Position numbers and translations under genes: made by a program. A stretch of DNA of 64,000 nt from Owenia fusiformis. Its lineage: Eukaryota. The number at the start of each line of letters is the position of its first letter. The first letter of the stretch is position 1. Shown piece by piece: positions 6,927 to 58,440 of the stretch. The notes below the pieces were generated by a model that searched no databases, had not been told where the DNA came from, and saw only the letters and a program-made list of their open reading frames with translations. The stretch lies in assembly GCA_903813345.2 (NCBI GenBank), contig CAIIXF020000001.1, positions 26,846,001 to 26,910,000 of the forward strand. Reading direction: 5' to 3'.

Positions 6927-7237
6927 CAAGGAGTTTTGGCTCCCAGAATTAAAGTTAATATTTTCCTACAATGAAAACGCTGAAATGTCATTATTTTCTG
7001 AAATTTTGACCGATTATAAATAATATTCATTAAATAAACAATTTAAAAGATTCAAACCAATATCTCGATAATTTCTTCTGAGTTTTGGAATTTTTCGTTA
7101 GGAAATAAGACCAAAATTCACGTTTCAAATGTGGAAGTGAACAAAATGGCGGCTGTTAGAATTCAAATTTTGAAGCGTGACATTGCCATATATGGGAGAG
7201 AATATCAATGTTGCACTCTGGGAGCCAATCCTCCTTG
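6927..7237. mobile_element. MITE-like element
   Basis: AGCAAGGAGTTTTGGCTCCCAGA vs TCTGGGAGCCAATCCTCCTTGCT inverted pair; ends approximate. Confidence 0.55.
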
Positions 7238-7893
7238 CTTAGACCCCATTAAATATGTCACATGGTATGCTTATAATGACATCACACTGCATTCATATGG
7301 CTGATATATACAGATACCTCAAAAAAGCTAGAAACAGACCGTGTTCTGAATTCTGGTAAGGTGGTTTACCTCAACACATTCATTATTAAATGATTTGATT
7401 CTTTTCGGTAAAATTACCATTTCACATGGCCTTTAATAAAAAACAAGTGTTTTGTAATGATATCATCTTTAACCTGTTGATCTACATCCCCTATATTCCA
7501 ACATATGGACCAATTCAATTATACATAGTTAGAATATTCAAATAACTTAATGCCATACTATACACATTTTTTAAATACTCTTTTCAGTGTGTGAATGTCG
7601 AATAGGAGGTCTTATACATCAAAAACTAATATGTTATTTCTAAAAGAAAACTGAAATATAATTTCAAAGAATAGCGTCTTTTTGCCTATAATTATGTGAG
7701 TCACAGCAAACTTTAAGAAACATCTACTCAAAGCACAAAATTAATCAATTTTTAACATGGATTTATATAACTATAACTGCTCAGAAAACCACAGATTTGA
7801 AATAAATAGAATATTGGTGGCTTTACATGCTGTATTGTCAGGTAAGAATGTCACACAATTATAATATTCAGTGTTGATTTTTTTTTAACATAT

Positions 7894-10206
7894 TGTCGCG
7901 CCTGGGCCGTCTCACCGAGCACCCTGTATACTGGGGAAAGGCCTGGGACGACGAAAAGGGATCTTTGGAGGTGTTTCAAGGGTGTCGACCTGGTTTGGTG
8001 GTACGACAGTTACCAATAGAAGATGGCTCCACAAAACAATTATGTACAGGGTTTTTATAATCTATTCTAACATAAGTTTTTACAATATAATAACAAAATG
8101 TCCATATAATATACAAGTTTCTCTTCAAGAGTCGTCTCTGCTCTGGAGCTTGTTTAGCACTAAGAGTCACTGCGTCTCTCTATGTTCTCCTCTTGTAGTT
8201 TGTTCAGCTCTAGGAGTCACTACGTCTCTTAATCTTCTGTATGGAGTTTGTTCAGCTTAAGGAGCAACCTCAGCTCCGGGAGTCACTTCGTCTCTGGGGA
8301 AACCACGCAAACTCTCTCTCTTGGAAGAGTACCAGCCTCTAGAGCACTCTCTGTTTGGGAGTCGCCACTTCTCGATAAAAACCTCTGCTCTTGAACGATT
8401 CACACGCTCGGAGTATCTCAGCTCGGAGTCGTCTCGTCTCAAGAGAAATCAACGCAAACTCTGTGTCTCTTGGAGCACCTCAGTTCCGGTAGTGTAACTA
8501 TGGCTCCAATCACAACTCTGTCTCTTGGAAGGGGTCCAGGCTCTGGAGCAACCTCTGCTCGGGAGTCGCCACTTCTCGGGAAAACCTCTGCTCTTGAACG
8601 AGATTCACACGCTCGGAGTATCTTCAACTCGGAGTCCTCTCGTCTTAAGCGAAACCAAATAAACTCTGTCTCTGGAAGGGGTCCAGGCTCTGGAGCACTC
8701 TGCTCGGGAGTCGCCACTTCACAGGAGAAACCTCGTCACCCTCTACAGAGAAATAACACCTCTGGAATGTCAATCAGATGGTGAGATTAGACCAGAGCTG
8801 CTACTTCTCGATCTCGGAGTACCTTAGTTCCGGTGGAGTAACCTCGGCTCCAATGGAATAAACCTTGCAACATAGAAATACCTTGGTTCCAGTAGTGTAA
8901 CCTCAGTATCTAACTTCTGGAGGAGTCAAATCACCTCGGAGGGTACATCAAGTTCAGCAACTTGTATCAATTTCGGATCATCAATAACTCGGAGGAGGAG
9001 AAGAAGCAACTCACGAATATCGATCATTAAACTGAGATTAGACGGAGTTGTATTCTCAACCCTCGGAGCAGATTCCACTCTAGAATAGATGGAGGAGTAA
9101 GCACTCGGAGCAGTGAGTCCTCAGAGTAGGTATGGCTCTCAACTAGATGGAGGAGTAATCACTCGGAGCTGGCAATCCTCGGAGTAGGTATGGCTCTCAA
9201 CTAGATGGAGGAGTAATCACTCGGAGCTGGCAATCCTCGGAGTAGATACAACTCTCGAATATCAATCACAACGGAGATTAGACAGAGCTGTAACTACTCG
9301 GACCAAATATAGCTCAGAGGAGATATAACACTTAAATAATTGGAGGAGTAATGACTCGGAGCAGTGAGTCCTCGGAGCAGATATGACTCTTGAATATCAA
9401 TCAAACTGAGATTAGACAAGAGCCATAATTACTCGGAGCTGGCGATCCTCGGAGCAAATGGAGGAGTAATGACTCGGAGCAGTGACCTCTCGGAGCAGAC
9501 GCGACTCTCGAATATCAATCAAACTGAGATTAGACAAGAGTTGTAACTACTCAGAGAAGGAATCACTCCTTAAAATGGCGTCACTTCCGTAAAAAATAAA
9601 GATGGCCGACCGCAGGGAACTCTGGGAAGAAGAAATCAAAATGGCGGACGGCAATATGGCGTCAAACTCAATAATCAAATTGTCACTCACCAAAGAACTA
9701 TCTATTGTCTTGTCTTTTCCTCAATTGTCGCAACGCACGCAATTTACATCAAGCAATAGCAGCAAATAGTCAAATAATATCCAAATATAATCCACAGTTG
9801 TAATCAGCCACGCTCGCACATAAAATGCCCCAAACTGACGAGGTCCTGCTTGTACAAAATCTTGGTAAGCTCTGATTTACAGGTCACTTTCTCACACTAA
9901 AATCCAGACACCTCAAGTTGCATCATGGGAAAATACAACATAAGTTGGCGGTAAATTCAAATGAAGCCATCTGATTGGTTGAGCTCTGTTGCTGAGTGCC
10001 TAATTATGCAAATTTATTCCAAGGCCGTCGGCTGATTCAGTAAACATCCAAGTGCCTAGATGAGATTCTGTACGTAGACACTTTACAATACAATTCTTTA
10101 ATTACAGTGGACAGAACATGAAATAAAGATGAAATAACATAAAACCCAGTAAAATAAACGTTTCACAAACCCTAGTACTACTCAGGGGGAATTAAAAATT
10201 CCCACA
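7894..10206 (-). repeat. 3' LTR (2313 bp)
   Basis: Direct repeat of 13657-15967. By eye I found only a 2-bp indel near 8441 and a substitution near 9801. Confidence 0.95.
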
Positions 10207-10217
10207 CTCCCCCCTAC
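10207..10217 (-). other. Polypurine tract
   Basis: Minus strand GTAGGGGGGAG lies immediately before the TGTGGG start of the 3' LTR. Confidence 0.85.
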
Positions 10218-10448
10218 TAAGATTGATCGCCCACGATCACACAATATAAACTCAACTTCTACAAAAATACATAGAGAGCTCGAGCACCTCTTACAAAATA
10301 ATTACAAGTAAAGAGCTCACTTAGCTCCTTTCAAAAAGTTACACAATTATAATCAATACTCGCTCAATCAACAGTCTATCTACACTCGTCTACTATCTAA
10401 ACTACTATCTATCTACACTTTGTATTGTATTATTTATTCAAAGAGTCA

Positions 10449-12647
10449 CTAGGCCTCTGTCGTCGCCCCTCTGCCATGCACTTGGGAGAGCCTCATTGGC
10501 TCCTCAGATGAGTCAACTCTTCTCCAGTTCATCTTGTCTCTATCAGCACAACAAACTGGCAAGTATGTCGGCTGTCTTCTTTGACAAATGGGTCTCGCTC
10601 GGTAATGTAGTCTTTCTTCTCGCTGCTCACTTGATACCCCTCTTGGTTTGTAGGCTCGCCTCTCTCTTGTCAACTCGCTATCACTCGACCGTCTTGCCCC
10701 CCTACTTGACATTCCCTTCTCAAGGAGTGTAGGTCTTTCTCGGCTGTCTACTAGGACTCTAGGTTCCTCAGCTCCCACCTTAGGTCTATTGGAGGCATCT
10801 CGGCTCTTTACATCAAGAGAGTCATCTTCGCTCTTCTTCCTATTCTGGAGCCTAGTGATATCTCCAGCCTCAAGATTTGTTGGATCATCCTTCTTCTGCT
10901 TTCTTCTTCGTCTCTTCCTTCTATTCTGGAAGGGAATAACAAAGGTTCTTGGCTCCTTGGACCTCTCTTCTCGGGAGCTACTACAGCTCTGGATTCCTTC
11001 TCTGTTTGAGTCATGAAAGCTCATCTGTAAGGAGCCGTAATGGATCTCAGCCTTGCTAGCCAATAGATAGTCAGTACCCAAGATCCCATCTTGGCTAATT
11101 TCGGCCACCACTATCTCCAAAGAGGTCTTCCTCCCATCTAACTTCACTTCCATGAAGCACGAGCCATAAACTGCTATGGGAGAACCATCTGCTTGGACCA
11201 ATACATCTTTGGCTGGTTTCAGTTGTGGTCTCTTCTGGTAGTTGATTCGATTGAAGCTGTGTAGACTCATCAAAGACACCGCTGACCCTGTGTCTACTAG
11301 GCACTTAACAGGAGCTCCACACAGCTCAACGACAGCCACTATCTTCTGAGCAGATTCAGCTCTCTTAGGATCTTCCACCGCTCGACCCCTGGCATCAAGG
11401 AAACATACTGGGTGGATCCCTGGAGCATCTCCACTCTTCTTTGGTTTAGGACAATCAATGGAGAGGTGCCCTGGCTCTGAGCAATTATAGCAGGTGACTA
11501 GAGGACATCTTCTCACAATGTGCCCTTCCTCTCCACATCTTCTACAAGTAATAGTTCGAGGAGCTCGGGGTTCTCTTTGCTCTTTGAAGAGCTGTAACGC
11601 ATCATCTATCTCCTTCATCATCTCCGCCTTCATATCCTCCATCATCTTGAAAAGCTTTTCCTCCACAGGGTCGCTAGTCACAACTGAGATGTGATGGTTC
11701 AATTGTTTTGGCTTGAGTCCCCTTCGGATACGTTCCGACTCTTGGTAAGCTTCCTCCTTCTGGGCTTCTTCAATTGCCTGGTCGAGAGATTTTGGATCCC
11801 TACGATGGACTGCGGCTCTCACTTCATCATCGGTGATAGCATTTTCGAAGCTCCGTCTTGCCAATCTATCCTGAGAGGAACGGGGCATCTCCGGAAAGGC
11901 CAAGGCAGCTAACCTCCTAATACTTTGCCCCAAACTCTGTAAGGACTCCTTTGGCTTCCGGACTCTAGTGTTAAGCTCGGCTTCGTACATAGAGGCTTTG
12001 TCCCCTGGTCCAAATCTTTTGGTTAAGGCCTCTAAAAGATCACCATAAGTGTGTCCTTCTTCTAACTCTTGGACCAGCTGCTGAGCATCACCCCTCAATT
12101 GGTTGGTGAGATTCTGCCTCTTTTCCTCGTCATTCCATCTATTGCTTTCAATACAATTCTGGAAGTGGGCTTTGTAGTCAAGCCAGGGAGTTTTGCCATC
12201 AAATAGTTGGGTTGGCTTGATTTTAGTCTTCCTTCCCTGCTGCGCTGACTCCAAGGCCTTCCCACACATATCCATAGCTTTCTCAGCTAGTTTCACCATT
12301 GCCTGCTCATGGTTACTATTGGAGCTCTCTGCTCTCCTTTCCTCTGCTATTGGATGAGCCCTAAGGCTCTCTGGAGGAACTTCCACTCTACGAGATGTGG
12401 ATGGTTCTTGTTGAAGCCCTGTAGTAGTATCCCTTCTATTAGTATTTGACACATTGAGCTTCTCTGGCTCTGCTTCGACATAAGGCTCTGGAGGTAATCT
12501 GGCTCCAGATTGATTCCATCGACCAGTAAGTGGTTCCTCTCCAGACATGCGAGTGAGCTGGTTTGGATCCAACCTTGTGAGCTGAGGAGCCTCATGTCCT
12601 CTAGTCTTTGGAGACAGAGCGCTTCTATCTCGCTGCAAATCAACATC
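10449..12647 (-). CDS. gag: Gag (capsid, two CCHC knuckles) plus aspartic protease and basic tail
   Basis: FDGKTPWLDYKAHF capsid-like motif, CRRCGEEGHIVRRC and CYNCSEPGHLSIDC knuckles, LVDTGSAVS and ILGTDYL protease motifs. No YxDD or integrase motifs. Confidence 0.9.
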   Translation of the reverse strand, partial: DVDLQRDRSALSPKTRGHEAPQLTRLDPNQLTRMSGEEPLTGRWNQSGARLPPEPYVEAEPEKLNVSNTNRRDTTTGLQQEPSTSRRVEVPPESLRAHPIAEERRAESSNSNHEQAMVKLAEKAMDMCGKALESAQQGRKTKIKPTQLFDGKTPWLDYKAHFQNCIESNRWNDEEKRQNLTNQLRGDAQQLVQELEEGHTYGDLLEALTKRFGPGDKASMYEAELNTRVRKPKESLQSLGQSIRRLAALAFPEMPRSSQDRLARRSFENAITDDEVRAAVHRRDPKSLDQAIEEAQKEEAYQESERIRRGLKPKQLNHHISVVTSDPVEEKLFKMMEDMKAEMMKEIDDALQLFKEQREPRAPRTITCRRCGEEGHIVRRCPLVTCYNCSEPGHLSIDCPKPKKSGDAPGIHPVCFLDARGRAVEDPKRAESAQKIVAVVELCGAPVKCLVDTGSAVSLMSLHSFNRINYQKRPQLKPAKDVLVQADGSPIAVYGSCFMEVKLDGRKTSLEIVVAEISQDGILGTDYLLASKAEIHYGSLQMSFHDSNREGIQSCSSSREERSKEPRTFVIPFQNRRKRRRRKQKKDDPTNLEAGDITRLQNRKKSEDDSLDVKSRDASNRPKVGAEEPRVLVDSRERPTLLEKGMSSRGARRSSDSELTRERRAYKPRGVSSEQREERLHYRARPICQRRQPTYLPVCCADRDKMNWRRVDSSEEPMRLSQVHGRGATTEA

Positions 12648-13622
12648 TCAACTCCATCTATGCTGCTGCATATGGAGATCTGGTTCCAGATGGAATCTTG
12701 GGGAATAAGGAGGCATCCCTGCTCGGTAAAACATCTCTCTTGGACTTCTTTCAGGTTGAGTCAGATGAGCTGATCTTGGATCGCCTACCATCTCAACCCT
12801 AGAGGGATTCACTATCCGGGATACAGGTGGAGGAGGTTGGCTCATCTGTCCTAAGGTAGCATTCATCTCCTTCAAGAAACTCTTCATCCCCTCTCTGGTC
12901 TTCTTAGCCTCCTCTTGACCTTGATTCACCACATTCGCCAGTTTACCCAGTTCGACATGGAGGCTGCCCATCTCTTCCCATAGGTTCCTCTGCATATTAG
13001 AAAGATGTGCTATCTCCTCATGAAGGTGGTTCATCTCTTCATGAATCGTCACTTGCCCTTCACATTGTCTGTCTAGGAAGCAATCTCGCATCTTTAGCAC
13101 ATCTACTCTCAAAGTTCCCAAACTCCCTTCTAAAGACATCAGCCTGGACTTGGTGGAGTCGAATTCTCTCTTCCTCCGAGCCCAATGGTCTCCTCTCACA
13201 GCGGGAGCTGGAACGTCTCGTCTAAGCCTGGATTCAGCATGGTATCCAGTATCTTCCTTCTCTACATCAGGAAGTATCTGCATCGTCATATCTGGGGAAA
13301 TAACTCTGGGCTCTCCTCGGACTAGAGTCGCTCTGGCTCTTCCATCTAAGTCGTCTGGTAGAGTGTCATCTACTCTCACAAGTGGAACACCGAGACTCTC
13401 CTCCTCGCTTGGGAGCAATTTCCCCTCATCTCTTGGGAGCGATCTTCCCTCCGAACCAGACTGCTCTTCTGGACTTCTATCCCTTGGAGGAGTCTCCCAC
13501 TGCTTCAAACCAATCTTTGGAACCAATCGCACGATTCCGCCAGTTCTCACATCATCTCGTCTGGAGTACTCTTGCTCCATCTTCTCTGACGAACGCTCGC
13601 ACTTCTGTGACATCTCAGACAT
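12648..13622 (-). CDS. LTR element ORF, N-terminal part (324 aa, coiled coil)
   Basis: ATG about 15 nt after the PBS; heptad-rich central region; same frame as the downstream gag-protease ORF. Confidence 0.75.
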   Translation of the reverse strand: MSEMSQKCERSSEKMEQEYSRRDDVRTGGIVRLVPKIGLKQWETPPRDRSPEEQSGSEGRSLPRDEGKLLPSEEESLGVPLVRVDDTLPDDLDGRARATLVRGEPRVISPDMTMQILPDVEKEDTGYHAESRLRRDVPAPAVRGDHWARRKREFDSTKSRLMSLEGSLGTLRVDVLKMRDCFLDRQCEGQVTIHEEMNHLHEEIAHLSNMQRNLWEEMGSLHVELGKLANVVNQGQEEAKKTREGMKSFLKEMNATLGQMSQPPPPVSRIVNPSRVEMVGDPRSAHLTQPERSPREMFYRAGMPPYSPRFHLEPDLHMQQHRWS

Positions 13623-13637
13623 CTTCTAAGGCAACAG

Positions 13638-13655
13638 ATCCCACCGCTGCCACCA
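13638..13655 (-). other. Primer binding site, complementary to the tRNA-Leu 3' end
   Basis: Minus strand reads TGGTGGCAGCGGTGGGAT, 1 nt after the LTR. This is the complement of ...AUCCCACCGCUGCCACCA, the tRNA-Leu AAG/TAG-type 3' end. Confidence 0.85.
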
Positions 13656-13656
13656 A

Positions 13657-15967
13657 TGTCGCGCCTGGGCCGTCTCACCGAGCACCCTGTATACTGGGGA
13701 AAGGCCTGGGACGACGAAAAGGGATCTTTGGAGGTGTTTCAAGGGTGTCGACCTGGTTTGGTGGTACGACAGTTACCAATAGAAGATGGCTCCACAAAAC
13801 AATTATGTACAGGGTTTTTATAATCTATTCTAACATAAGTTTTTACAATATAATAACAAAATGTCCATATAATATACAAGTTTCTCTTCAAGAGTCGTCT
13901 CTGCTCTGGAGCTTGTTTAGCACTAAGAGTCACTGCGTCTCTCTATGTTCTCCTCTTGTAGTTTGTTCAGCTCTAGGAGTCACTACGTCTCTTAATCTTC
14001 TGTATGGAGTTTGTTCAGCTTAAGGAGCAACCTCAGCTCCGGGAGTCACTTCGTCTCTGGGGAAACCACGCAAACTCTCTCTCTTGGAAGAGTACCAGCC
14101 TCTAGAGCACTCTCTGTTTGGGAGTCGCCACTTCTCGATAAAAACCTCTGCTCTTGAACGATTCACACGCTCGGAGTATCTCAGCTCGGAGTCGTCTCGT
14201 CTCGAGAAATCAACGCAAACTCTGTGTCTCTTGGAGCACCTCAGTTCCGGTAGTGTAACTATGGCTCCAATCACAACTCTGTCTCTTGGAAGGGGTCCAG
14301 GCTCTGGAGCAACCTCTGCTCGGGAGTCGCCACTTCTCGGGAAAACCTCTGCTCTTGAACGAGATTCACACGCTCGGAGTATCTTCAACTCGGAGTCCTC
14401 TCGTCTTAAGCGAAACCAAATAAACTCTGTCTCTGGAAGGGGTCCAGGCTCTGGAGCACTCTGCTCGGGAGTCGCCACTTCACAGGAGAAACCTCGTCAC
14501 CCTCTACAGAGAAATAACACCTCTGGAATGTCAATCAGATGGTGAGATTAGACCAGAGCTGCTACTTCTCGATCTCGGAGTACCTTAGTTCCGGTGGAGT
14601 AACCTCGGCTCCAATGGAATAAACCTTGCAACATAGAAATACCTTGGTTCCAGTAGTGTAACCTCAGTATCTAACTTCTGGAGGAGTCAAATCACCTCGG
14701 AGGGTACATCAAGTTCAGCAACTTGTATCAATTTCGGATCATCAATAACTCGGAGGAGGAGAAGAAGCAACTCACGAATATCGATCATTAAACTGAGATT
14801 AGACGGAGTTGTATTCTCAACCCTCGGAGCAGATTCCACTCTAGAATAGATGGAGGAGTAAGCACTCGGAGCAGTGAGTCCTCAGAGTAGGTATGGCTCT
14901 CAACTAGATGGAGGAGTAATCACTCGGAGCTGGCAATCCTCGGAGTAGGTATGGCTCTCAACTAGATGGAGGAGTAATCACTCGGAGCTGGCAATCCTCG
15001 GAGTAGATACAACTCTCGAATATCAATCACAACGGAGATTAGACAGAGCTGTAACTACTCGGACCAAATATAGCTCAGAGGAGATATAACACTTAAATAA
15101 TTGGAGGAGTAATGACTCGGAGCAGTGAGTCCTCGGAGCAGATATGACTCTTGAATATCAATCAAACTGAGATTAGACAAGAGCCATAATTACTCGGAGC
15201 TGGCGATCCTCGGAGCAAATGGAGGAGTAATGACTCGGAGCAGTGACCTCTCGGAGCAGACGCGACTCTCGAATATCAATCAAACTGAGATTAGACAAGA
15301 GTTGTAACTACTCAGAGAAGGAATCACTCCTTAAAATGGCGTCACTTCCGTAAAAAATAAAGATGGCCGACCGCAGGGAACTCTGGGAAGAAGAAATCAA
15401 AATGGCGGACGGCAATATGGCGTCAAACTCAATAATCAAATTGTCACTCACCAAAGAACTATCTATTGTCTTGTCTTTTCCTCAATTGTCGCAACGCACG
15501 CAATTTACATCAAGCAATAGCAGCAAATAGTCAAATAATATCCAAATATAATCCACAGTTGAAATCAGCCACGCTCGCACATAAAATGCCCCAAACTGAC
15601 GAGGTCCTGCTTGTACAAAATCTTGGTAAGCTCTGATTTACAGGTCACTTTCTCACACTAAAATCCAGACACCTCAAGTTGCATCATGGGAAAATACAAC
15701 ATAAGTTGGCGGTAAATTCAAATGAAGCCATCTGATTGGTTGAGCTCTGTTGCTGAGTGCCTAATTATGCAAATTTATTCCAAGGCCGTCGGCTGATTCA
15801 GTAAACATCCAAGTGCCTAGATGAGATTCTGTACGTAGACACTTTACAATACAATTCTTTAATTACAGTGGACAGAACATGAAATAAAGATGAAATAACA
15901 TAAAACCCAGTAAAATAAACGTTTCACAAACCCTAGTACTACTCAGGGGGAATTAAAAATTCCCACA
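13657..15967 (-). repeat. 5' LTR (2311 bp)
   Basis: Direct repeat of 7894-10206, followed on the minus strand by the PBS. Confidence 0.95.
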
Positions 15968-16258
15968 ATATTTAAGGCTAGGGCAAATAATATTAACATG
16001 TTAAGCATATATTTAACACCATAATAAATAAGGTACATTTTTGAGGTCTTATATTTTTAGTATTGCTTCAAGCCTATGTGCCGCCCCCCCCCCCATTCTC
16101 CATCTTATGCGGCTTGGTTTGGTTAAAAGGTTGATTAGATGGTGAAATGGTATAAGCAGTGTTCTTGAGAACAAGAGGTCGTGGGTTCAATTCCAGTTTC
16201 CAGCACTTCGAGTTGTTGATTGTACTAATGCACGAAATGTATTTGTATTTACCAATTA

Positions 16259-16436
16259 CAGTAAAACCTGTAAAGTGGAACACCTCTATAAGTGGAACAC
16301 CTCTATAAGTGGAACACCTGTGTCAGAGCCCTATGACCAATTGACTTTAACCAAATGAACCTCTGTAAGTGGAACGCCCCAAATTGGAACACTTCCTTGA
16401 GGTACCAAAAGTCTTCCACTTTCACAGGTTTTACTA
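16259..16436. mobile_element. Tc1/pogo-type MITE
   Basis: TA|CAGTAAAACCTG ... CAGGTTTTACT, with internal 18-bp repeats. Confidence 0.7.
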
Positions 16437-17555
16437 TTCTATCTCTATAGAGTGCTGCCAGCTTGATAAAAGGAACTGTCGGGAACTGTCGGGAACTGTC
16501 GGGAACTGTCTACCGTCTTAAGACACCCGGTTTAGATACCAGTTATTCAACTAGAAAATTGGGAGAACTGTTTTACAATTCCCTTTCATCATTTCATGTC
16601 ATGTCTCTTTTGCTAAAGGTTTTTAAAGTTTCCTTCAAACAAGTTTAAAGTGGGATGTCACCTGAGCTCGACTTCCAAAGAGATGCATACGCTATATTTC
16701 TTTATATCATATTTATCAATTGACATAAGTAACAAAATCTTCAACAGGAGTTATTGAATCTATATGTATGTAAAGTGTACGTAGGAGATAAGTAAAGAAT
16801 TTTATTTTATTTCACTGATCACCAGGGACATACCTGTACTTTATTCTATCTTTCATTTCAAGAAATGTTTACAAAGAACTTAGGACATCAGTCAGTATCC
16901 ATATGTCAATACTGATAAATCGTTGTAAGTGTGACAGAAGGTCTAATAAACTATATACACCTACATATAGTGTTAATAGACATTGATGTGGTCTATAGAC
17001 AATGGTCAACATTTCAAATACATAAAATATGAATTTTTAAATATTTTCATAACCTCCTAATGTGGACACTTTGTCCCAGCAGTGGTCTGTGATCATAGGG
17101 AGATTATAAGCTACATGTTTTAGAGAACTTGAGCATGAATGTGTACTATTATGACCCCAGGAGATTATTGTCCTTCTCTCAATTAGTTTATATTATTTCA
17201 ACAATTTTCCTTATTCCTACACACTCAATCTATGAAGTGAAGGAGAACTAGAGGACCATAATTTTACACATTCAAATACAGGTTCTCTTTTATATAGCCT
17301 AACTTTCCCAATATCAAACTGGTTTATTGTTTAAATATATATAGACTTCCTGGTCTATGTGACAAAACTCTAGACCATCCCTGCTAGATCTGTTATACCT
17401 GTAAATGTTTACTATGCTGTTATAATATGAAGTGGCCTTAAAGTATTTGATAAATGGTTTAAGTTTAAAATCTTACACGGTCCCAAGAATTGGCAATCTA
17501 TACAAATGAAACTGAAACTTTTTAAGATGATATGAAAATCTATACTCTTTTCCAG

Positions 17556-33000: not shown

Positions 33001-34219
33001 CAATAAATGGTGTATAGTTGGTTTGGCAGTATTTTCAGTTAGGGGAGAGTCTTGGATGAAATTTCCACCTAGGTGATAGCTTCGCAGAGTGGTAGGAAGT
33101 TCTTTTTTTTGAGGAGTTAGCCCCCCACCCCCAAAAAACACCCCACCCTGGGGAAAAAATTGTTCACACTAAATAACCTTAGATATTTTGATGTTTGTAA
33201 GTGACATACATAGATATTATATATATGAATAATTTGCAGTATTATTGATACTGATGACTCCTAAGGAATTTGAATATCAGTACAAAGTGTGTACCCCAGG
33301 GGGCAAATTCGTGACTCATTTTCTTACTGTTTTGATTCTAACTTTTCAATTAGACACTGTAAGAGGTTGAAAAAATTCATGTGAAGTGCCCAATAGCAGG
33401 GTTAGTAACCCTGAAAGATGCAAAGCCATGGAAGAAGTAGGAGCTGAGAAAAGAATTGTTGATTTTTCGAAAAATTTGACATTTTTGACAACTGGATTTT
33501 GTGTATGACTATAGCTGACCCCTATAGTTTCTAGATCCATCCCTCTATGATGATATTTATGGTTTTATAGTGTGGAACTAAGATGTAAAACATAATTTAG
33601 ATGTGTTTTAAGGAAGTTAAAGGTTTTAAACAAGTCCAAAATTTGAAAAATTGTAAATATAAGGTTTCAAATTTATGAATTCCAGGTATAGCCATGGCTG
33701 ACCCCTATAGTTTCTAGATCCATCCATCTTTGATGATATTTATGCTTTCATAGTGTGAAACTAAGATGTAAAACATAAATTAGATGGGTTTTAAGAAAGT
33801 TATAGGTTTTAAACAAGTCCAAAATTCGAAAAATTGTAAATGTAAGGTTTCAAATTTACGAATTCCAGCTATAGCCATGGCTGACCCCTATAGTTTCTAG
33901 ATCCATCCCTCTTTGATGATATTTATGGTTTTGTAGTATGGAACTAAAGATGTAAAACATAATTTAGATGGGTTTTAAGGAAATTAATGATTTAAAACAA
34001 GTCCAAAATTTGAAAAATTGTAAATATAAGGTTTCAAATTTACGAATTTTAGGTATAGCCATGGATGACCCTTATGGCTTTTTCATCAATACTTCTATGA
34101 TGAAACATATACTTTTAGAGTGTGAAACTAAGATGTAAAACATACCGAAGATGAATTTTAAGGAAGTTTAAGAATTTTAACAAGTGCAATATTTGAAAAA
34201 TTGAGAAATATCAGGTCTC

Positions 34220-34910
34220 AAAGGAGCACGGAAAGTATCGCAACAGATTTCAGACAGTCATATGTTGGATTTTGTCTGTTTTCTGAGGATTTAAGCAGGT
34301 GCATATGATAGACCATTGCATTACCTACAGGAAAAGAACTCTTAGAGATGATAAAATAGTTTAGAATTTGAGACAGCGAAGGTGAAAACATTCAACCCAC
34401 ATGTTTTTGGGGAAATGTCGTCCTGATTTTCAACCCCGTTCACCCCTGGTTTTTCAATTTTTGTTGCATCAATATGTTGCCTTTTGAGACATAGTTAACC
34501 ATTAAAAGGATAAATTTCTTTTAGATAAAGCGGAAAACAATATTTTCCTGTTATTTTCCCATAGGGAAAACTCATGTGATCCATTGCTTTCAGCTTAATT
34601 TTGGTCACCCATATTTGATATCTTTAAAATCCCTGATGGAATGTATTTTTCATTTAAAGGGGTTAACTGTATGTAAAAACACATATATTTATACATATAC
34701 ACATATATATTTATGCATGTGGATGGGTTGTTTGCACCTTCCCTGTCTCAAAATAGAAATTATTTTATCATCTCTATGGGTGCTTTTCCTGGAGGAAATG
34801 CATTGGCCTAACATGCAACATGAAATATGCACCTCCTCAAACCCTCAGAAATTAGCCAAAATCCAACATATGATTGCTGAAATCTGTTGCGATACTTTCA
34901 GTCCTCCTTT
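34220..34910. mobile_element. MITE with about 180-bp TIRs inserted in the left arm of the long-TIR element
   Basis: AAAGGAGCACGGAAAGTATCGCAACAGATTTCAG vs CTGAAATCTGTTGCGATACTTTCAGTCCTCCTTT; the interrupted repeat unit resumes at about 34908. Confidence 0.75.
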
Positions 34911-36428
34911 ACGATTTCAGGTATAGCCCTGGATCTCTTTTTGAATGTATGACTTAGCTTAGAAATTAGATGTTGAAAATATTGTGGTCAGGTTTGATCC
35001 ATGTTACATGTATTGTTAAAAGAAAAAATCATTAGAGTTGAGGAATTAAACTTTGAATTCCTAAGGGGGTGAGAGGTTAATAAATCCCCCAGTAAGTGTA
35101 ACTGCTCCTAGGGATATCGTATACAGTGTAGTTATTGATTGATTAAATGCATGGATTATAACTAATTAATTATTATTTGATGATATTTATTATGTGATAT
35201 AGCATTTTTACTTTTTCACATCAACATGTCCGATGTAATGTTCTGCATTATCAAAATACATAAAGACATGGTTAATTAAAAGAAACATGTTTTCTCTATA
35301 TTTTGTTATGCCCCTTCTGTAATTAAGCAATGATCATCTCCTAATACAAAATGTTGTTATGAATTATCAAATTATAATCACTACACTCCCAATAAAACAA
35401 TTTGTCATCAGGCAACGGTAATTATTTGGGAAAATAAGGATTATAAGGATCATACCCCCCCCCCCCCCCCCCCCGGGCCTAGAAACTTCCGTTAGTGCAA
35501 TGATATAAGGAACTCTAGGGTAAAAGGATCTAGCATAGTTAAAGATTTTTTTTCATTTATTGAAATGATAGTCATAAAATTATAATATCAGTGTCATTTG
35601 ATGCAAATTACTGCAGTCCCACATGTTCTGCTGAATGTAAAACAGAGTGAATAATTTTAAAATCAGCCTCTTCAGGAGTGTAATTTAACAGGAGATTTCA
35701 GTTATCATTTTCACAGATATTTGAGTTCTCTCCAATAGTTCCACTTAAAACAATCTTGACTTTTGGCACATTTTTAGAATGCTGCTTTATTGAATTTCTT
35801 TGTAATCTTTGAAAAGTTGTCTTATATTACTTGGACAAAGGTATTCATATTTTTAGGTAATGGTGTAATTTCTTCTATGGATTAAAGTTCAATAGGGGAA
35901 GCATCCATTCTTCGCATTCTTTCAGAATCCTTTACTGATGGAGACAACTAGCTAGGAGTCTAATATGAAATCTATTCTTTGGGCTCCTTTACTAGATTTG
36001 ATGGAGTAGTCAAATATAGCTTTCCAAAACTCATTGTCAAACGAACTGTTTGCATCCATATAAGATCATAGTTTACTCACTCATTTCTAGGCAAGGTGTG
36101 TCCAATTCCAGCCAATTCAATATTCCATATAACTGCATTCCAATTTACTACTCTCATAAACCCAAGGTCAATTTTAGATTCCAGAGAAACTAATGAAACT
36201 AATGATCATAGGGAATAGCATGCCAAGTGCTTGTATTTGAATTTATGTGGATTACTCATTTGGTAGACACCTTTATCAAATGTTAAAGTGTTGTTGATTT
36301 TAAAGTTGTACAAGCACAGTGTCATGGGTGCTTTCTTTTCCTGACATAGTATAACATTGTGGTAAAAATTATCAAAGGCACCTAGTACAGTAGTTCTAGT
36401 TCATCATCTTGTATAAATGATATATCAG

Positions 36429-36949
36429 CAGTGAAACCTGTATATCCCAACATCTGACTATTGTGAACACCTACCAATCATACCAACACCTGACTTATCT
36501 GAAAACCAACCAATCTGAACACTTTTCCCCAGTTCAATTTTTCCTTCCTCCCATTGACTCCTATGTTTAAAAATTGAAATTTGAACACCTCTTAATTCGA
36601 ACAGTGAACACTCATATTTGAAAAATCAACCTATTTAACTTGAACTTTTATTTTACCAAATATCACATATTTCTTACAAAATTGCTCAAATATTGTCAGT
36701 TTAACACTGAATTGTTATGATATCAAAACTTTTGAATTGGATTTTGGAATGCTATTAAGCTTTTCGGGTGGTCAGTATAAATATTATTAATATTTATTAA
36801 TATTTTTCATTGAGAATGCATTCATATTTCTTCAAAATCCAGAATATTGCAGATGTAAAAACCTCAAAATTCAAACACTTCTAATTTGGACGCTTTTAGC
36901 TGGTCCAAATACTATATCTAGTAGCATTCAGATTAGAAAGATTTTACTG
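36429..36949. mobile_element. Tc1/pogo-type MITE
   Basis: CAGTGAAACCTGTATATCC ... GATTTTACTG|TA; inverted relative of 40688-41027. Confidence 0.6.
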
Positions 36950-38914
36950 TAGTTCATGACTTTTCACTCCATCTATATGCAGCAGACTAACTGCTGCAAC
37001 AGGTATATATTCTACACCTGGTCTCTAAGCTATGATGTCACGGTTGTTAGTATTATGCTCATAACCTTCGATTATCAGGGCTCATTCAAGGCTGTACCTG
37101 AATAACGTGAATTTGAGACCAATTTTCGAGATCAATTTTTCAAATTTTGCACTTGTTTAAAACCTTGAACTTCCTTCAAACTCATCTTATGCATCTTTTA
37201 CATTTTAGTTAAATACTCTAAAAATATATATCTCATCACTGAGGTATAGATGTAAAAAAACCATAAGGGTCATCTTTGGCTATACCTGAAATTCATAAAT
37301 TTGAAAACTTACATTTACAATTCTTCAAATTTTTGACTTGTTTAAAACCTTAAACTTTCTTAAAATTCATTTTGGGTATGTTAAATCTTAGTCCCACACT
37401 CTAAAACTGTATATTTAATCATAGAGGTATGGATGCAAAAACCATAACGGTCAGCCGTGGCTATACCTGAAATTCGTAAATTTGAAACCTTATATTTACA
37501 ATTTTTCAAATTTTGAACTTGTTTAAAACCTTAAACTTCCTTAAAACCCATCTAAATTGTGTTTTACATATTAGTTCCATACAGCAATACCATAAGTATC
37601 AACATAGAGGGATGGATCTAGAAACTTTAGGGGTCTGCCATGGCTCTACCTGGAATTCGTAAATTTGAAACCTTATATTTACAATTTTTCAAATTTTGGA
37701 CTTGTTTAAAACCTCAAACTTCCTTAAAACCAATCTTAATTATGTTTTACATCTTAGTTCCACACTATAAAACCATATATATCATCATAGAGGGATGGAT
37801 CCAGGATCTATAGGGGTCAGCTATAGTCATACACAAAATCCAGTTGTCAAAAATGTCAAATTTTTCGAAAAATCAACAATTCTTTTCTCAGCTCCTACTT
37901 CTTCCATGGCTTTGAATTTTTCAGGGTTACTAACCCTGCTATTGGGCACTTCACATGAATTTTTTCAACCTCTTACAGTGTCTAGTTGAAAAGTTAGGAT
38001 CAAAATAGTAAGGAAATGGGTCACGAATTTGCCCCCTGGGGTACACACTTTGTACTAATATTCAATTTTTTTAGGAGTAATCAGCATCAATTATACTGCA
38101 AATGATTCATATATATAATATCTATGTATGTCACTTACAAACATCAAAATATCTAAGGTTATTTAGTGTGAACAATTTTTTTCCCCGGGGTGGGGTGTTT
38201 TTGTGGGGTAGGGGGCTAACTCTTCAAAAAAAAGAACTTCCTACCACTCTGTGAAGCTATCACCTAGGTGGAAATTTCATCCAAGACCCTCCCCTAACTG
38301 AAAATGCTGCCAAACCAACTATACTCCATTTATTGAGAATTTTCCTCCTCGCCCCTAGAGTATCTATGATTTCACACTTCCAAGATCTTTATTTGCATAC
38401 AATTGTTCTTCGTAATCCTGTGTGCGTCATTGGAGATCATTGCTTAACTCACGCTGTTTTTGTGCTGATTGTTTTTCTCGGTTTATTGGCTTTAGCATGT
38501 ATAATATATTTATTGTCTGTTCTTCAAATGTTACCCTTGAGCTTTGTGATCCTAAGATTGATTGAAACACATATAATGAGATAGCAGTTTCCCTAAATAT
38601 CGATGGGATTAAATGGACATGTATAATACCCAATGCTGCAATAAGTTATTCTTATAGTTTTTTTTATGTATTGTTTCTATGGTATCTATATTACAAATTT
38701 GGTAAAAATTATCATTGTTCTAAATAAAGCATTTAAAGGTCAGCATGTGATTTGGCCTTTATTCCAAAACATCATTGCCACAATTATTTTAAAATCACCG
38801 TTGCCACAATTATTCTAAAAACATCATTACAACAATTATCCCAGTTGTCAATCAAATTTCCTGACTCACTGGTGATCCACTCGTTTACGCTGGTTACCGA
38901 AACGGTTCGTTACT

Positions 38915-47000: not shown

Positions 47001-47369
47001 CACGAACTTATTATGTCCTCAAGCTGAACATTCATCAAATATAGAAAGAGCCATATTCTGTCAAATAATTTCTAGACGGCACTTGTCAGGTCATTTCAAA
47101 AACAATTTCACGAATAACAAAAGAAGCGCTGAGTATCGAGGCAGATACTTGATGCAATTTCCATGTCAAAATGTTTGCTTTTCATTTAGCTGAATACACC
47201 TTATCAAATCACATTTATTGACTGCAGTTCATCGGCAGTTTTATTGCTATAATTTCTTTACTGTTACAGTAATAATCAAATCCACTTGTGAAGTTCTGAT
47301 TTTCATCATTTACATAGGAGGTACTTAACGGGGTGTCTACAAAACAAAGACCTAAGACCTAAGACCTAC

Positions 47370-48295
47370 AAAACTAAGACCCCCCACGTTATAAAACTAA
47401 GACCCTGTTATAAAACTAAGACCCCCCATGTAATAAAACTAAGACCCTGTTATAAAACTAAGACCCCCCACGTTATAAAACTAAGACCCTGTTATAAAAC
47501 TAAGACCCCCCCACATTATAAAACTAAGACCCTGTTATAAAACTAAGACCCCCCACGTTATAAAACTAAGACCCTGTTATAAAACTAAGACCCCCCACGT
47601 AATAGAACTAAGACCCTGTTATAAAACTAAGACCCCCCACGTTATAAAACTAAGACCCTGTTATAAAACTAAGTCCCCCATGTTATAAAACTAAGACCCT
47701 GTTATAAAACTAAGACCCCCCACGTTATAGAACTAAGACCCTGTTATAAAACTAAGACCCCCACGTTATAAAACTAAGACCCTGTTATAAAACCAAGACC
47801 CCCCACGTTAAAAAACTAAGACCCTGTTATAAAACTAAGACCCCCCACGTTATAAAACTAAGACCCTGTTATAAAACTAAGACCCCCCACGTTGTAAAAC
47901 TAAGACCCTGTTATAAAACTAAGACCCTCCACGTTATAAAACTAAGACCCTGTTATAAAACTAAGACCTCCCACGTTATAAAACTAAGACCCTGTTATAA
48001 AACTAAGACCACCCACGTTATAAAACTAAGACCCTGTTATAAAACTAAGACCCCCGCGTTATAAAACTAAGACCCTGTTATAAAACTAAGACCCCCCACG
48101 TTATAAAACTAAGACCCTGTTATAAAACTAAGACCCCCCACGTTATAAAACTAAGACCCCCCACGTTATAAAACTAAGACCCCCCACGTTATAAAACTAA
48201 GACCCTGTTATAAAACTAAGACCCCCCACGTTATAAAACTAAGACCCTGTTATAAAACTAAGACCCCCCATGTTATAAAACTAAGACCCTGTTAT
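47370..48295 (+). repeat. 42-bp tandem array (23+19 bp subunits), left arm
   Basis: TTATAAAACTAAGACCCCCCACG alternating with TTATAAAACTAAGACCCTG. Confidence 0.95.
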
Positions 48296-48695
48296 AAGAA
48301 TCAGTCATCGTGCCTTGCTCTGCTCGCCACAAGGTAGTCTTGCCTCTGGGCCTTGTGTTCCCTAGTAACATACAGATTCTACAAAAGATAGTCGTGCTTC
48401 TGGTCCTTGTGTTCCCTTCTAATGTACAGATTCTCCCCACTAACATAAAGATTCTACAAAAGGTAGTCTTGCTTCTGGTCCTTGTGTTCCCTTCTAATAT
48501 ACAGATTCTCCCCACTAACATAAAGATTCTACAAAAGGTAGTCTTGCTTCTGGTCCTTGTGTTCCCTTCTAATATACAGATTCTCCCCACTAACATAAAG
48601 ATTCTACACATGGTAGTCTTGCCTCTGGCCCTTGTTTACCCTAGTAACATACACATATGGTAGTCTTGCCACTGGCCCTTGTTTTCCCCAGTAAC

Positions 48696-49289
48696 ATGGT
48701 GGTTCAAGATTTCAGACCCATCTTTCTCACATATATTGCTGAACTTATTTTAGTTAAGAATTCCTAATAGAATTAAGAATTAATAGCTGAAACTGTTCTG
48801 TTTGTCCTAGCAAACAATATCCCAATATGCATTTGAAATTCATTTTTGTCTATATGTGTTGACAGTCTGTGATGTCATCATCAATCATCACAATGGGAAT
48901 TAGGTGAATTCTATCTGTGACAGTGAGATTATCTATGATGTCACATAGTAGTTTGATTTCTAAGAAATGTGGCAGAGTTCTATCTATGACAGAGATGCTT
49001 TGTGATGTCATCATGAATTATCTCGTTTCCATTGTGATGATTGATGATGTCATCAGAGTACTTTGTGATGTCATCGTGAATTACCTCATTTCTATTGTGA
49101 TGATTGATGATGACATCACAGACTGTCAACAAATAGACAGAAGAAGTTGAACTACAAGTTGGAAAATTGTTTGCTAGGGCAAAACAACTCCGTTTCAGCT
49201 AATAATTCTTAATTCTATTAGGAATTCTTAACTAACAATGGTTCAGCAATCTGTGCCAGAATGATGGGTCTTAAATCTTGAACTACCAT
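48696..49289. mobile_element. Near-fully palindromic MITE nested in the foldback element
   Basis: ATGGTGGTTCAAGATTTCAGACCCATC vs GATGGGTCTTAAATCTTGAACTACCAT; inverted similarity continues inward for more than 200 bp. Confidence 0.75.
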
Positions 49290-49604
49290 TAAACATCACT
49301 TCCAAAACAATACCAGCATAAAATGGAGTATCTCTTTTTATGCTCAGCATAAAATGGGACATCACTTTTTATGCCAGCATAAAATGGGATATCACTTTTT
49401 ATGCCAGCATAAAATGGGACATCACTTTTTATGCCGGGCATAAAAAGTGATATCAAAAAATTACTTTTTTTAAAAATCAACAAATCCGGGTATTTGTTAC
49501 AGTCCATTTTTATATAATCCGCTGTTGTATGTTACTGGGGAACACAAGGCCCAGAGGCAAGACTACCTTGTGGCGAGCAGAGCAAGGCACGGTGACTGAT
49601 TCTT

Positions 49605-51690
49605 ATAGCAGGGTCTTAGTTTTATAACGTGGGAGGTCTTAGTTTTATAACAGGGTCTTAGTTTTATAACGTGGGGGGTCTTAGTTTTATAACAGGGTCT
49701 TAGTTTTATAACGTGGAGGGTCTTAGTTTTATAACAGGGTCTTAGTTTTATTACGTGGGGGGTCTTAGTTTTATAACAGGGTCTTAGTTTTATAACGTGG
49801 GGGGTCTTAGTTTTATAACAGGGTCTTAGTTTTATAACGTGGGGGGTCTTAGTTTTATAACAGGGTCTTAGTTTTATAACGTGGGTGGTCTTAGTTTTAT
49901 AACAGGGTCTTAGTTTTATAACGTGGGGGGTCTTAGTTTTATAACAGGGTCTTAGTTTTATAACGTGGGGGGTCTTAGTTTTATAACAGGGTCTTAGTTT
50001 TATTACGTGGGGGGTCTTAGTTTTATAACAGGGTCTTAGTTTTATAACGTGGGAGGTCTTAGTTTTATAACAGGGTCTTAGTTTTATAACGTGGGGGGTC
50101 TTAGTTTTATAACAGGGTCTTAGTTTTATAACGTGGGGGGTCTTAGTTTTATAACAGGGTCTTAGTTTTATAACGTGGGGGGTCTTAGTTTTATAACGTG
50201 GGGGGTCTTAGTTTTATTACGTTGGGGGTCTTAGTTTTATAACAGGGTCTTAGTTTTATAACGTGGGGGTCTTAGTTTTATAACAGGGTCTTAGTTTTAT
50301 AACGTGGGGGTCTTAGTTTTATAACAGGGTCTTAGTTTTACAACGTGGGTGGTCTTAGTTTTATAACAGGGTCTTAGTTTTATAATGTGGGGGGTCTTAG
50401 TTTTATAACAGGGTCTTAGTTTTATAACGTGGGGGGTCTTAGTTTTATAACAGGGTCTTAGTTTTATTACGTGGGGGGTCTTAGTTTTATAACGCGGGAG
50501 GTCTTAGTTTTATAACAGGGTCTTAGTTTTATAACGTGGGGGGTCTTAGTTTTATAACAGGGTCTTAGTTTTATAACGTGGGGGTCTTAGTTTTATAACA
50601 GGGTCTTAGTTTTATAATGTGGGGGGTCTTAGTTTTATAACAGGGTCTTAGTTTTATTACATGGGGGGTCTTAGTTTTATAACAGGGTCTTAGTTTTATA
50701 ACGTGGGGGGTCTTAGTTTTATAACAGGGTCTTAGTTTTATAACGTGGGTGGTCTTAGTTTTATAACAGGGTCTTAGTTTTATAACGTGGGTGGTCTTAG
50801 TTTTATAACAGGGTCTTAGTTTTATAACGTGGGGGGTCTTAGTTTTATAACAGGGTCTTAGTTTTATTACGTGGGGGGGTCTTAGTTTTATAACAGGGTC
50901 TTAGTTGTATAACGTGGGAGGTCTTAGTTTTATAACAGGGTCTTAGTTTTATAACGTGGGGGGTCTTAGTTTTATAACAGGGTCTTAGTTTTATAATGTG
51001 GGGGGTCTTAGTTTTATAACAGGGTCTTAGTTTTATTACGTGGGGGGTCTTAGTTTTATAACAGGGTCTTAGTTTTATAACGTGGGGGGTCTTAGTTTTA
51101 TAACATGGTCTTAGTTTTATAACGTGGGGGGTCTTAGTTTTATAACAGGCTCTTAGTTTTATAACGTAGGGGGTCTTAGTTTTATAACAGGGTCTTAGTT
51201 TTATCACATGGGGGTCTTAGTTTTATAACAGGGTCTTAGTTTTATAACGTGGGGGGTCTTAGTTTTATAACAGGGTCTTAGTTTTATTACGTGGGGGGTC
51301 TTAGTTTTATAACAGGGTCTTAGTTTTATAACGTGGGAGGTCTTAGTTTTATAACAGGGTCTTAGTTTTATAACGTGGGGGGTCTTAGTTTTATAACAGG
51401 GTCTTAGTTGTATAATGTGGGGGGTCTTAGTTTTATAACAGGGTCTTAGTTTTATTACGTTGGGGGTCTTAGTTTTATAACAGGGTCTTAGTTTTATAAC
51501 GTGGGGGGTCTTAGTTTTATAACAGGGTCTTAGTTTTATAACGTGGGGGGTCTTAGTTTTATAACAGGGTCTTAGTTTTATAACGTAGGGGGTCTTAGTT
51601 TTATAACAGGGTCTTAGTTTTATTACATGGGGGGTCTTAGTTTTATAACAGGGTCTTAGTTTTATAACGTGGGGGGTCTTAGTTTTGTAG
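49605..51690 (-). repeat. 42-bp tandem array, right arm (inverted)
   Basis: Reverse complement of the left array and roughly twice as long. Confidence 0.95.
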
Positions 51691-52004
51691 GTCTTAGGTC
51701 TTAGGTCTTTGTTTTGTAGACACCCGTACTTAACGTCTATTAATTGCATTAATGAAGAAAGCATGCATTAATGAAAAACGAAGGTTATTGTGTACCAAGT
51801 CATGAATCATCATGTTGTCAATGAATAATGCACACTGTATTGCACTTGATAACATGTATTGCACTTGATAACATTATTATCACATTGAATAAAAATTCGA
51901 TATTAAGCCAATGTGACCCAGCATGCAACCAAAAAATGTTCTTGATTTTTACTCATTGAGTTAACCATAAAAAAAATTGCGGGCAAAGTCTGTACTCTCC
52001 CTTT

Positions 52005-57698: not shown

Positions 57699-58352
57699 AT
57701 GGACAGCAACAACAACAACCCCATCCTAAAGGATGTTAACCTCAACAACACAGCATTGTATTATGGTGAACTGGAAGAGGGTCAAATTATAGACTCTGCT
57801 TCATTAGGCTTTCTTCAGAACTCCACGACTGACTTTGGAAATTCTGCATATAACATGCCATCACACACCAACACCAGCGGTTCACTCGACAAACATGCTA
57901 AAGAAGTCTTGCTTCAGTCAGACTTCAATCCAGATCTTCATGATCCCAGGCTCGCTAAAGCCAGTGATTCTAGGCTCTTTCCTCGAGGGAATGAGGTGCA
58001 GGACACTTTTAGCAACAAACATCAGAACCCCATGTCTCACATGAGACCAGGTGGAGACTGTTTACAGTCCGATAAATTGAACTCTATAGGATTCAATTCT
58101 ACAAACATTCAGGCTTCTAAAAAGCTACTGAAAAAACAACGCGATTTACAACGCTCCAAAGAACCCCTAAATGAACCCCAAGTTTATCAACAAACGGGGT
58201 CTGGATTAGTGCAAGACATCATCAAGGGGTTAACTCCAACATTGGAAATGATCGCCTCTAATAAACAACTGGATATTGAGCTCTTAGGTCAACCTGAAAA
58301 CAGGAACAGATCTTCTCAAAGACGCTCACAACAAAGGAGGAAAACGTCATAA
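57699..58352 (+). CDS. DIRS ORF1, N-terminal part
   Basis: First ATG after the left ITR; overlaps the next frame at 58288-58352. Confidence 0.6.
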   Translation: MDSNNNNPILKDVNLNNTALYYGELEEGQIIDSASLGFLQNSTTDFGNSAYNMPSHTNTSGSLDKHAKEVLLQSDFNPDLHDPRLAKASDSRLFPRGNEVQDTFSNKHQNPMSHMRPGGDCLQSDKLNSIGFNSTNIQASKKLLKKQRDLQRSKEPLNEPQVYQQTGSGLVQDIIKGLTPTLEMIASNKQLDIELLGQPENRNRSSQRRSQQRRKTS

Positions 58353-58440
58353 TTCCCCGGTTTCTTCACAAGACGATAGCTCGCCCGCACGGACACTTAG
58401 CATTAAACGGCATCGTTCTGATCACCCCTCCACTAGTGAA

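Follow-up and report, generated by a model that had tools for sequence, protein, structure and literature searches.

In this study, a window of 64,000 nucleotides from Owenia fusiformis (contig CAIIXF020000001.1, positions 26,846,001 to 26,910,000) was analysed, which carries at positions 7894-15967 a long terminal repeat (LTR) retrotransposon with a gag-protease region and no reverse transcriptase (RT), RNase H or integrase. We consider it highly probable that this element is a copy of a long-lived semi-autonomous Ty3/Gypsy lineage, designated A1, which supplies its own capsid and takes RT and integrase from elsewhere. Its members are present in multiple copies, were inserted recently and lack pol; one Gag-protease frame is retained among them, and sequence is exchanged between them and a rare pol-bearing element of the same LTR type. 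A mobile family that borrows Pol from a Gypsy partner had been proposed by the initial annotation of this DNA, and the proposal is supported by the pol-less state of 16 of 17 related elements, by selection on the frame and by near-identical blocks shared with a pol-bearing relative.

Families were counted in one haploid assembly by exact junction patterns between the polypurine tract (PPT) and the LTR and from the LTR to the primer-binding site (PBS); such patterns miss diverged copies, thus all counts are lower bounds. In three additional similarity searches 40 of 62, 40 of 57 and 40 of 137 candidates were scored. For the LTR type of the window element, hereafter A-type, 18 PPT-LTR and 18 LTR-PBS junctions were found, 17 of which pair into elements, the two left over being contig-end fragments. 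Sixteen of the 17 paired elements are pol-less and fall into two groups, A1 with 14 copies (the window copy, L031-L042 and L045), all pol-less, and A2 with 2 copies (L046 and L048). The LTR pairs are 99.7-100% identical in all 14 fully recovered siblings, seven of them at 100%, and a perfect 4-bp target-site duplication (TSD) flanks 15 of the 15 copies checked (ATAT in 12, GTAT in 2 and ATAC in 1), showing a preference of the family for ATAT targets. ATAT in AT-rich DNA might arise by chance, but the perfect duplication in every copy checked counters that. Comparison of flank against flank among 15 copies gave no cross-matches, and the family further includes two solo LTRs (L071 and L072) flanked by ATAT duplications. 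Thus the copy count called for by the initial annotation revealed a shared pol-less structure at unrelated sites, and its rival scenario of a lone pol-less copy beside near-identical full-length siblings did not hold, since no near-identical pol-bearing sibling of the window copy exists in the assembly. The check by different TSDs was of less use: every copy does have its own 4-bp duplication, yet this discriminates poorly because the family prefers ATAT. Two unplaced contigs were considered as hiding places of a partner and rejected, one (C115) containing an A2 tail and the other (C721) matching just 47 interior bases.

The window element itself (Table 1) shows all the hallmarks of Ty3/Gypsy elements, i.e. 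TG...CA LTRs, a tRNA PBS, a PPT and a TSD, and its two LTRs differ by only 1 substitution and one 2-bp indel, so that the intact cis signals and near-identical LTRs described from the sequence were confirmed throughout, together with the 3.45-kb interior and the 57% LTR share. Over its 18 nt, the PBS is exactly complementary to the 3' end of a genomic tRNA-Leu plus CCA, and ARAGORN called tRNA-Leu(AAG/TAG) at 3 of 4 loci tested. A first pattern for the primer tRNA was abandoned, as 24 of 24 loci sampled from its 246 matches were the PBS of other elements, and a tighter pattern located the tRNA. The same loci provide a separate observation: the 15-nt PBS core occurs 246 times in the genome, the 24 sampled occurrences are PBSs of LTR elements from several other families, and the tRNA-Leu primer is thus widely shared among LTR families of this genome. 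Nested sub-repeats make up 1,115 of the 2,311 bases of the 5' LTR, with a 7-nt core present 19 times. Rfam gave no match at E<=0.5 over positions 7000-17000, so no structured RNA was recognised in the LTRs, and an inverted repeat sought within the LTR was not found.

Table 1. Features of the LTR element and its Gag-protease frame (positions in the 64,000-nucleotide window)
Feature	Position	Strand	Remark
Whole LTR element	7894-15967	-	8,074 bp; interior 3,450 bp; LTRs 57.3% of length
Left TSD	7890..7893	.	ATAT at both element ends
Right TSD	15968..15971	.	ATAT, matches left copy
3' LTR	7894..10206	-	2,313 bp, TG...CA
5' LTR	13657..15967	-	2,311 bp, TG...CA
Candidate TATA box in 5' LTR	13816-13822	-	TATAAAA, from sequence only
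Nested LTR sub-repeats	14024..15317	-	mirrored in 3' LTR at ~8261-9556
PPT adjoining 3' LTR	10207..10219	-	PPT-LTR junction at 18 genome sites, pol-bearing relative included
PBS	13638..13655	-	18 nt, one base past 5' LTR
N-terminal Gag	12651..13622	-	324 aa from first ATG; predicted coiled-coil-like stretch, weak hits; swapped between copies as a block
Premature in-frame stop	12648..12650	-	in window copy
Capsid region	11586..12215	-	boundaries set by us; weak PNMA match at 11934-12170 (PF14893, E=1e-4, below curated cut-off)
Nucleocapsid, two CCHC zinc knuckles	11451..11546	-	PF00098, E=9e-14
Retropepsin-type aspartic protease	11067..11330	-	PF13650, E=4e-5; D-T-G at 11286-11294, GILGTD intact
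Basic low-complexity tail	10452..11012	-	~187 aa, C-terminal to protease; common to 14 A1 copies

With regard to coding capacity, the domain order read from the sequence (gag, two CCHC knuckles, protease) stands, as does the lack of pol: Pfam detected no RT, RNase H or integrase in the window element, a six-frame motif scan found no RT or integrase motif on the coding strand, and likeness to solved structures was confined to the nucleocapsid and the retropepsin. The frame from 13622 to 10449 is not unbroken, however, as the premature stop, overlooked at first, cuts it into pieces of 324 aa and 732 aa. The window copy is thus probably unable to make its own full Gag-protease, and is probably a dead end or relies on its siblings for Gag too, unless translation begins at Met 12548. 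The tail behind the protease finishes near an RRxxPxYL-like motif, which is present in the integrase tails of relatives too (weak similarity). An origin of this tail as an integrase remnant was rejected, the similarity being weak and low-complexity (best E ~1e-5, 22-23% identity, no composition correction) apart from the short common motif, and is taken as a hint only.

The siblings argue that the frame is maintained. In 11 of 13 A1 siblings it is uninterrupted over 935-1,106 aa, and the position of the disruption differs between all three broken A1 copies, one of which is the window copy. Codon models on 12 A1 copies (kappa on a grid; the broken L041 and L045 and the A2 copy L046 left out) gave the following dN/dS ratios (omega), each with its 2dlnL against omega=1: capsid 0.10 (299), nucleocapsid 0.29 (18), protease 0.32 (34) and tail 0.78 (2.6), the last not being significant. 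Pairwise substitution counts rank the regions as the codon models do, the protease omega over all 14 copies was 0.39, and the capsid omega of A1 equals that of pol-bearing copies (0.10; one further A1 copy and one further copy of the sister LTR type B were left out of this capsid comparison). The dN/dS analysis of gag-pro suggested at the outset thus revealed purifying selection on capsid and protease. The protease catalytic motifs are intact in all 14 A1 copies, which form one clade (100/100) without a pol-bearing member in the protease tree; this tree is complete, while the capsid tree was built without L049 (a fragment) and L065.

The pol-less form itself seems to be old. All 14 A1 copies cease to match the pol-bearing relative at the same point, the end of the protease, and beyond it carry a tail specific to the pol-less form with a mean divergence of 13.6%, far above that of the LTR pairs. 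Since the tail has diverged to this extent while LTR pairs are near-identical, copying of the pol-less form goes back a long way, and the form is much older than any present insertion. Despite its near-neutral omega, the tail shows 0 stops where about 10 would be expected from at least 181 substitutions. An origin of the pol-less form as a copy of a spliced gag-protease RNA found no support, as no donor site lies at the end of homology and the sequence from the protease to the 3' block is not derived from the partner.

A single A-type element (G000:C7, L043/L044/L079) carries RT, RNase H and integrase. In common with pol-less A-type copies, it has the PPT, an ATAT TSD and, at 97% identity, the last 35 interior bases. 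Compared over windows of 250 nt, its 5' gag matches that of several pol-less copies at 99-100%, and against the window copy identity is 96-100% in part of the capsid and in the LTR; in the nucleocapsid-protease region it does not exceed 77%. The window copy is in turn a mosaic, with 5' gag 100% like L031 and the stretch from capsid to tail 99-100% like L032-L034. Template switching between co-packaged RNAs would be the simplest cause of such mosaics. The initial annotation had advised a search for an autonomous element with common LTR ends and PBS; in this relative, PPT, LTR ends and near-identical blocks are shared, but the element is broken and its PBS has two mismatches. Separately, in this element and in another pol-bearing copy, the integrase ends in a long tail to which a C2H2 zinc-finger model matches weakly (L044:6812-7552 and L085:1-1752; E 2e-4 and 2e-3, below cut-off), which might be related to target choice.

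Based on these data, we propose that an intact A1 copy would be transcribed from LTR to LTR and translated into Gag-protease, which would package its own RNA and, as far as the sequence suggests, putatively mature its own capsid. Gag-Pol of a pol-bearing partner would join the same particle, its RT would prime on tRNA-Leu and switch templates between co-packaged RNAs, giving rise to mosaics, and its integrase would put the DNA into ATAT-like sites. As interrupted frames are few and have not spread, the RNA of a copy would probably depend on Gag made from that same copy.

Several points weigh against this proposal. Mobilisation in trans is deduced from the youth of the LTRs, the TSDs and the mosaic structure; proteins, particles and transposition events were not observed, and the mosaics could also come from gene conversion at the DNA level. 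The assembly holds no uninterrupted A-type pol-bearing copy: the partner has two frameshifts, one stop, an integrase tail enlarged by ~6 kb of extra sequence, and the two PBS mismatches, its LTRs are ~99.2% identical and hence seemingly older than those of most pol-less copies, and the next-best match to its pol reaches only 77% (40 of 57 candidates scored). The constraint on the protease is real but relaxed, with an A1 omega (0.32-0.39) that exceeds the 0.08 of pol-bearing B copies four- to fivefold and lies near that of another pol-less group, C (0.41); because group C has an altered D-P-G motif, an omega below 1 is no proof of catalysis. Exchange of capsid sequence with the pol-bearing relative means that some of the constraint on the capsid may date from autonomous lineages, and recombination violates the single-tree codon model. 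On the other hand, some of the breaks in the partner could be assembly errors. In run X2, a 4,946-nt contig spans the partner region from nucleocapsid to integrase with 21 differing letters and 2 gaps, and the run shows small indel differences in the frameshift regions; it was taken as evidence of presence only, as the RNA nature of this run is a guess and flank depth equals pol depth. Reads of the DNA run X23 cover the A-type pol at roughly single-copy depth by our estimate. The A-type pol is thus present in other samples (runs X2 and X23), where it may be uninterrupted. As to expression, two raw RNA runs, of which 6% and 12% were read, yielded 44 and 40 matches to the partner stretch, the majority within the LTR, which speaks neither for nor against it.

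The sister LTR type B uses the same PBS as the A-type. The 22 junctions found with the B search comprise nine pol-bearing B copies, five copies each of the pol-less groups C (D-P-G protease) and D (D-S-G protease; three of the five assigned by motif and frame only), one deleted copy and two copies of a third type. No interruption was seen in 4 of the 9 pol-bearing B copies. The pol-bearing relatives show the Gypsy order of protease, RT, RNase H and integrase in a single frame (Pfam on L082 and L084), and the window element, itself without pol, takes its Gypsy assignment from them through the capsid and protease that the trees show to be shared, and in L082 gag and pol form one uninterrupted frame of 2,307 aa. 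The capsid tree divides A from B (100/100), the protease tree groups A2 with C (98/93), and several C and D copies match a B copy at 89-98% identity in blocks at the 3' side. LTRs of B copies measure ~1.7-2.2 kb and those of the A partner 2.8 kb, so the "giant" LTRs noted at first are indeed long, but this is a family trait unconnected to pol loss and not special to the pol-less form; the 57% share results from the loss of ~3.6 kb of pol. Three side observations were made on these relatives. Group C (L062/L090, L063, L070, L086 and L087) has D-P-G in 5 of 5 copies, yet young LTRs and long open frames, and is possibly, judging by the motif, a lineage losing protease activity. The third type (L084 and L096) has an LTR 3' end as in B and a different PBS sequence, which suggests a primer switch. 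In one B-type copy (L065/L066, G000:C9, ~8.88 Mb), the LTR pair matches in two separate pieces, with ~1.4 kb extra in the 3' LTR.

Given these B copies, it is possible, if somewhat doubtful, that the family is semi-autonomous with its Pol donated by the nine pol-bearing B copies instead of the rare A-type partner. B copies agree with the A-type in PBS and LTR-terminal bases, have a similar PPT and mostly ATAT-like sites, LTR similarity is ~74%, and most of their LTR pairs are young (99.7-99.95%); in wheat, Wilma has been proposed to mobilise Sabrina and WHAM despite almost no homology (PMC9744471). However, in any 250-nt window the window copy has at most 79% identity to the two B copies compared and up to 100% to the A-type partner, A and B separate in the capsid tree, and A-type pol exists in other samples.

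A different division of labour, which we regard as unlikely, would make the pol-less lineages heritable "subgenomic" suppliers of Gag on which the partner depends, the whole being a two-component system. Particles need an excess of Gag (PMC5580714), and partners whose gag and pol share one frame would be without the usual frameshift route to it. At least four pol-less Gag-protease lineages were found (A1, A2, C and D), every one with a protease variant of its own (D-T-G, D-S-G or D-P-G), and they would represent the majority of each capsid or LTR community. If true, an animal Gypsy lineage would here have its genome split between mutualistic components.

It is quite improbable that A1 is a pure parasite, its Gag-protease frame a decaying remnant, all proteins supplied in trans, and the low omega inherited from autonomous ancestors or imported by recombination. 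Capsid blocks common to A1 and the pol-bearing relative, the relaxed protease omega relative to B, the stop in the young window copy and the weak correlation between protease and tail distances (Mantel rho 0.31, p 0.016) would agree with such decay, but 11 of 13 siblings remain open despite deep divergence, the tail is stop-free, the catalytic motifs are intact in every A1 copy and the A1 protease clade has no pol-bearing member. Finally, while the strongly deleted B-type copy (L095) shows that deletions occur and a single haploid assembly is the basis, an origin from one-off or repeated independent deletions after insertion, or from segmental or assembly duplication of one defective copy, can be practically dismissed and is refuted for the family by the TSD of each copy, the unrelated flanks and the junction and tail common to A1 copies, with sibling interiors just 76-96% identical to the window copy (40 of 62 candidates scored) and no near-identical pol-bearing sibling in the assembly. 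We therefore retain a semi-autonomous A1 lineage that exchanges sequence with its A-type partner as the best explanation.

Other repeats were also observed in the window. Three long overlapping frames (406, 789 and 998 aa) lie at 58288-62505 on the plus strand, and Pfam recognises RT in the middle one (E=7e-25). Their layout, and an end motif without a Pfam hit that we take to be tyrosine-recombinase-like, point to a DIRS-type retrotransposon that seems intact. Long inverted arms (845 nt, 90%) with 183-bp tandem units at 33103-38232 look like a foldback or MITE-type DNA element, and at 47338-51719 a 42-bp satellite forms two inverted arrays with other repeats as their core, which may represent a foldback element. 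Just beyond the right TSD, at ~16120-16210, a stretch that looked tRNA-like by eye, for which ARAGORN and Rfam made no call, is perhaps a SINE head.

Gag-only LTR elements of vertebrates (MaLR and zebrafish BHIKHARI) are described as having a gag-like frame and no pol, are derived from retroviruses and are not known to carry a protease. No semi-autonomous Gag-protease element of an animal Gypsy lineage was found in the accessible literature, although subscription journals and Repbase Reports were outside reach and absence is thus unproven, and the keyword-matched passages of two annelid LTR surveys (PMC8556966 and PMC8220671) do not describe such elements. In the sources consulted, semi-autonomous Gag-protease retrotransposons have so far been described from cereals and beet. 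TR-GAG elements of Coffea and other plants, named at first as the precedent, turned out not to be the closest one. Like the window element, they combine LTRs, a PBS and a PPT with a gag frame and lack RT, RNase H and integrase, but they were selected as shorter than 4 kb and without protease similarity, with a 5-bp TSD and a Copia-type Gag (PMC4350172), whereas the element described here measures 8,074 bp, has a protease and Gypsy-order relatives, and its family has a 4-bp TSD in 15 of 15 copies. The same set of features is shared with the sugar beet families that have GAG/PROT domains only, of which a survey lists 28 (bioRxiv 10.64898/2026.03.01.708851). RLG_Quinta of einkorn wheat, a Gag-keeping derivative of the autonomous Gypsy element RLG_Cereba, resembles A1 in recombination around gag, and its Gag has been proposed to serve the partner; it differs in having GAG plus an unknown domain, no protease and a centromeric location (PMC11302176).

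The closer precedent is RLG_Sabrina_SA of wheat and barley, a Gypsy element termed "semi-autonomous", which measures 8.1-8.3 kb, lacks RT and integrase but has an intact GAG-Pro frame, and whose partner was inferred from PBS and LTR ends (PMC9744471). A1 is likewise of Gypsy type, multicopy and 8.07 kb long, with a pol-less population (14 of 14 A1 copies) and an intact GAG-Pro frame in 11 of 13 siblings; as for the partner, the A-type one is broken and slightly older, its pol is found in runs X2 and X23, and B is a second candidate. The likeness is one of design only. While RLG_Sabrina_SA is a plant element with thousands of copies and almost no homology to its proposed partner Wilma (PMC9744471), the system described here lives in an animal host, has ~16 copies, inserts into a 4-bp ATAT-type target site, and exchanges 99-100% identical blocks with a homologous partner that it outnumbers 16 to 1. 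Surveys of LTR elements based on RT would overlook most young copies of the A-type LTR (16 of 17). The family is small enough for a full count, and can be used to test parasite versus Gag donor because selection on capsid and protease, block exchange with a partner and several parallel pol-less lineages are visible in it. The design is already published for wheat, and what appears to be new is the animal host together with a countable partner system.

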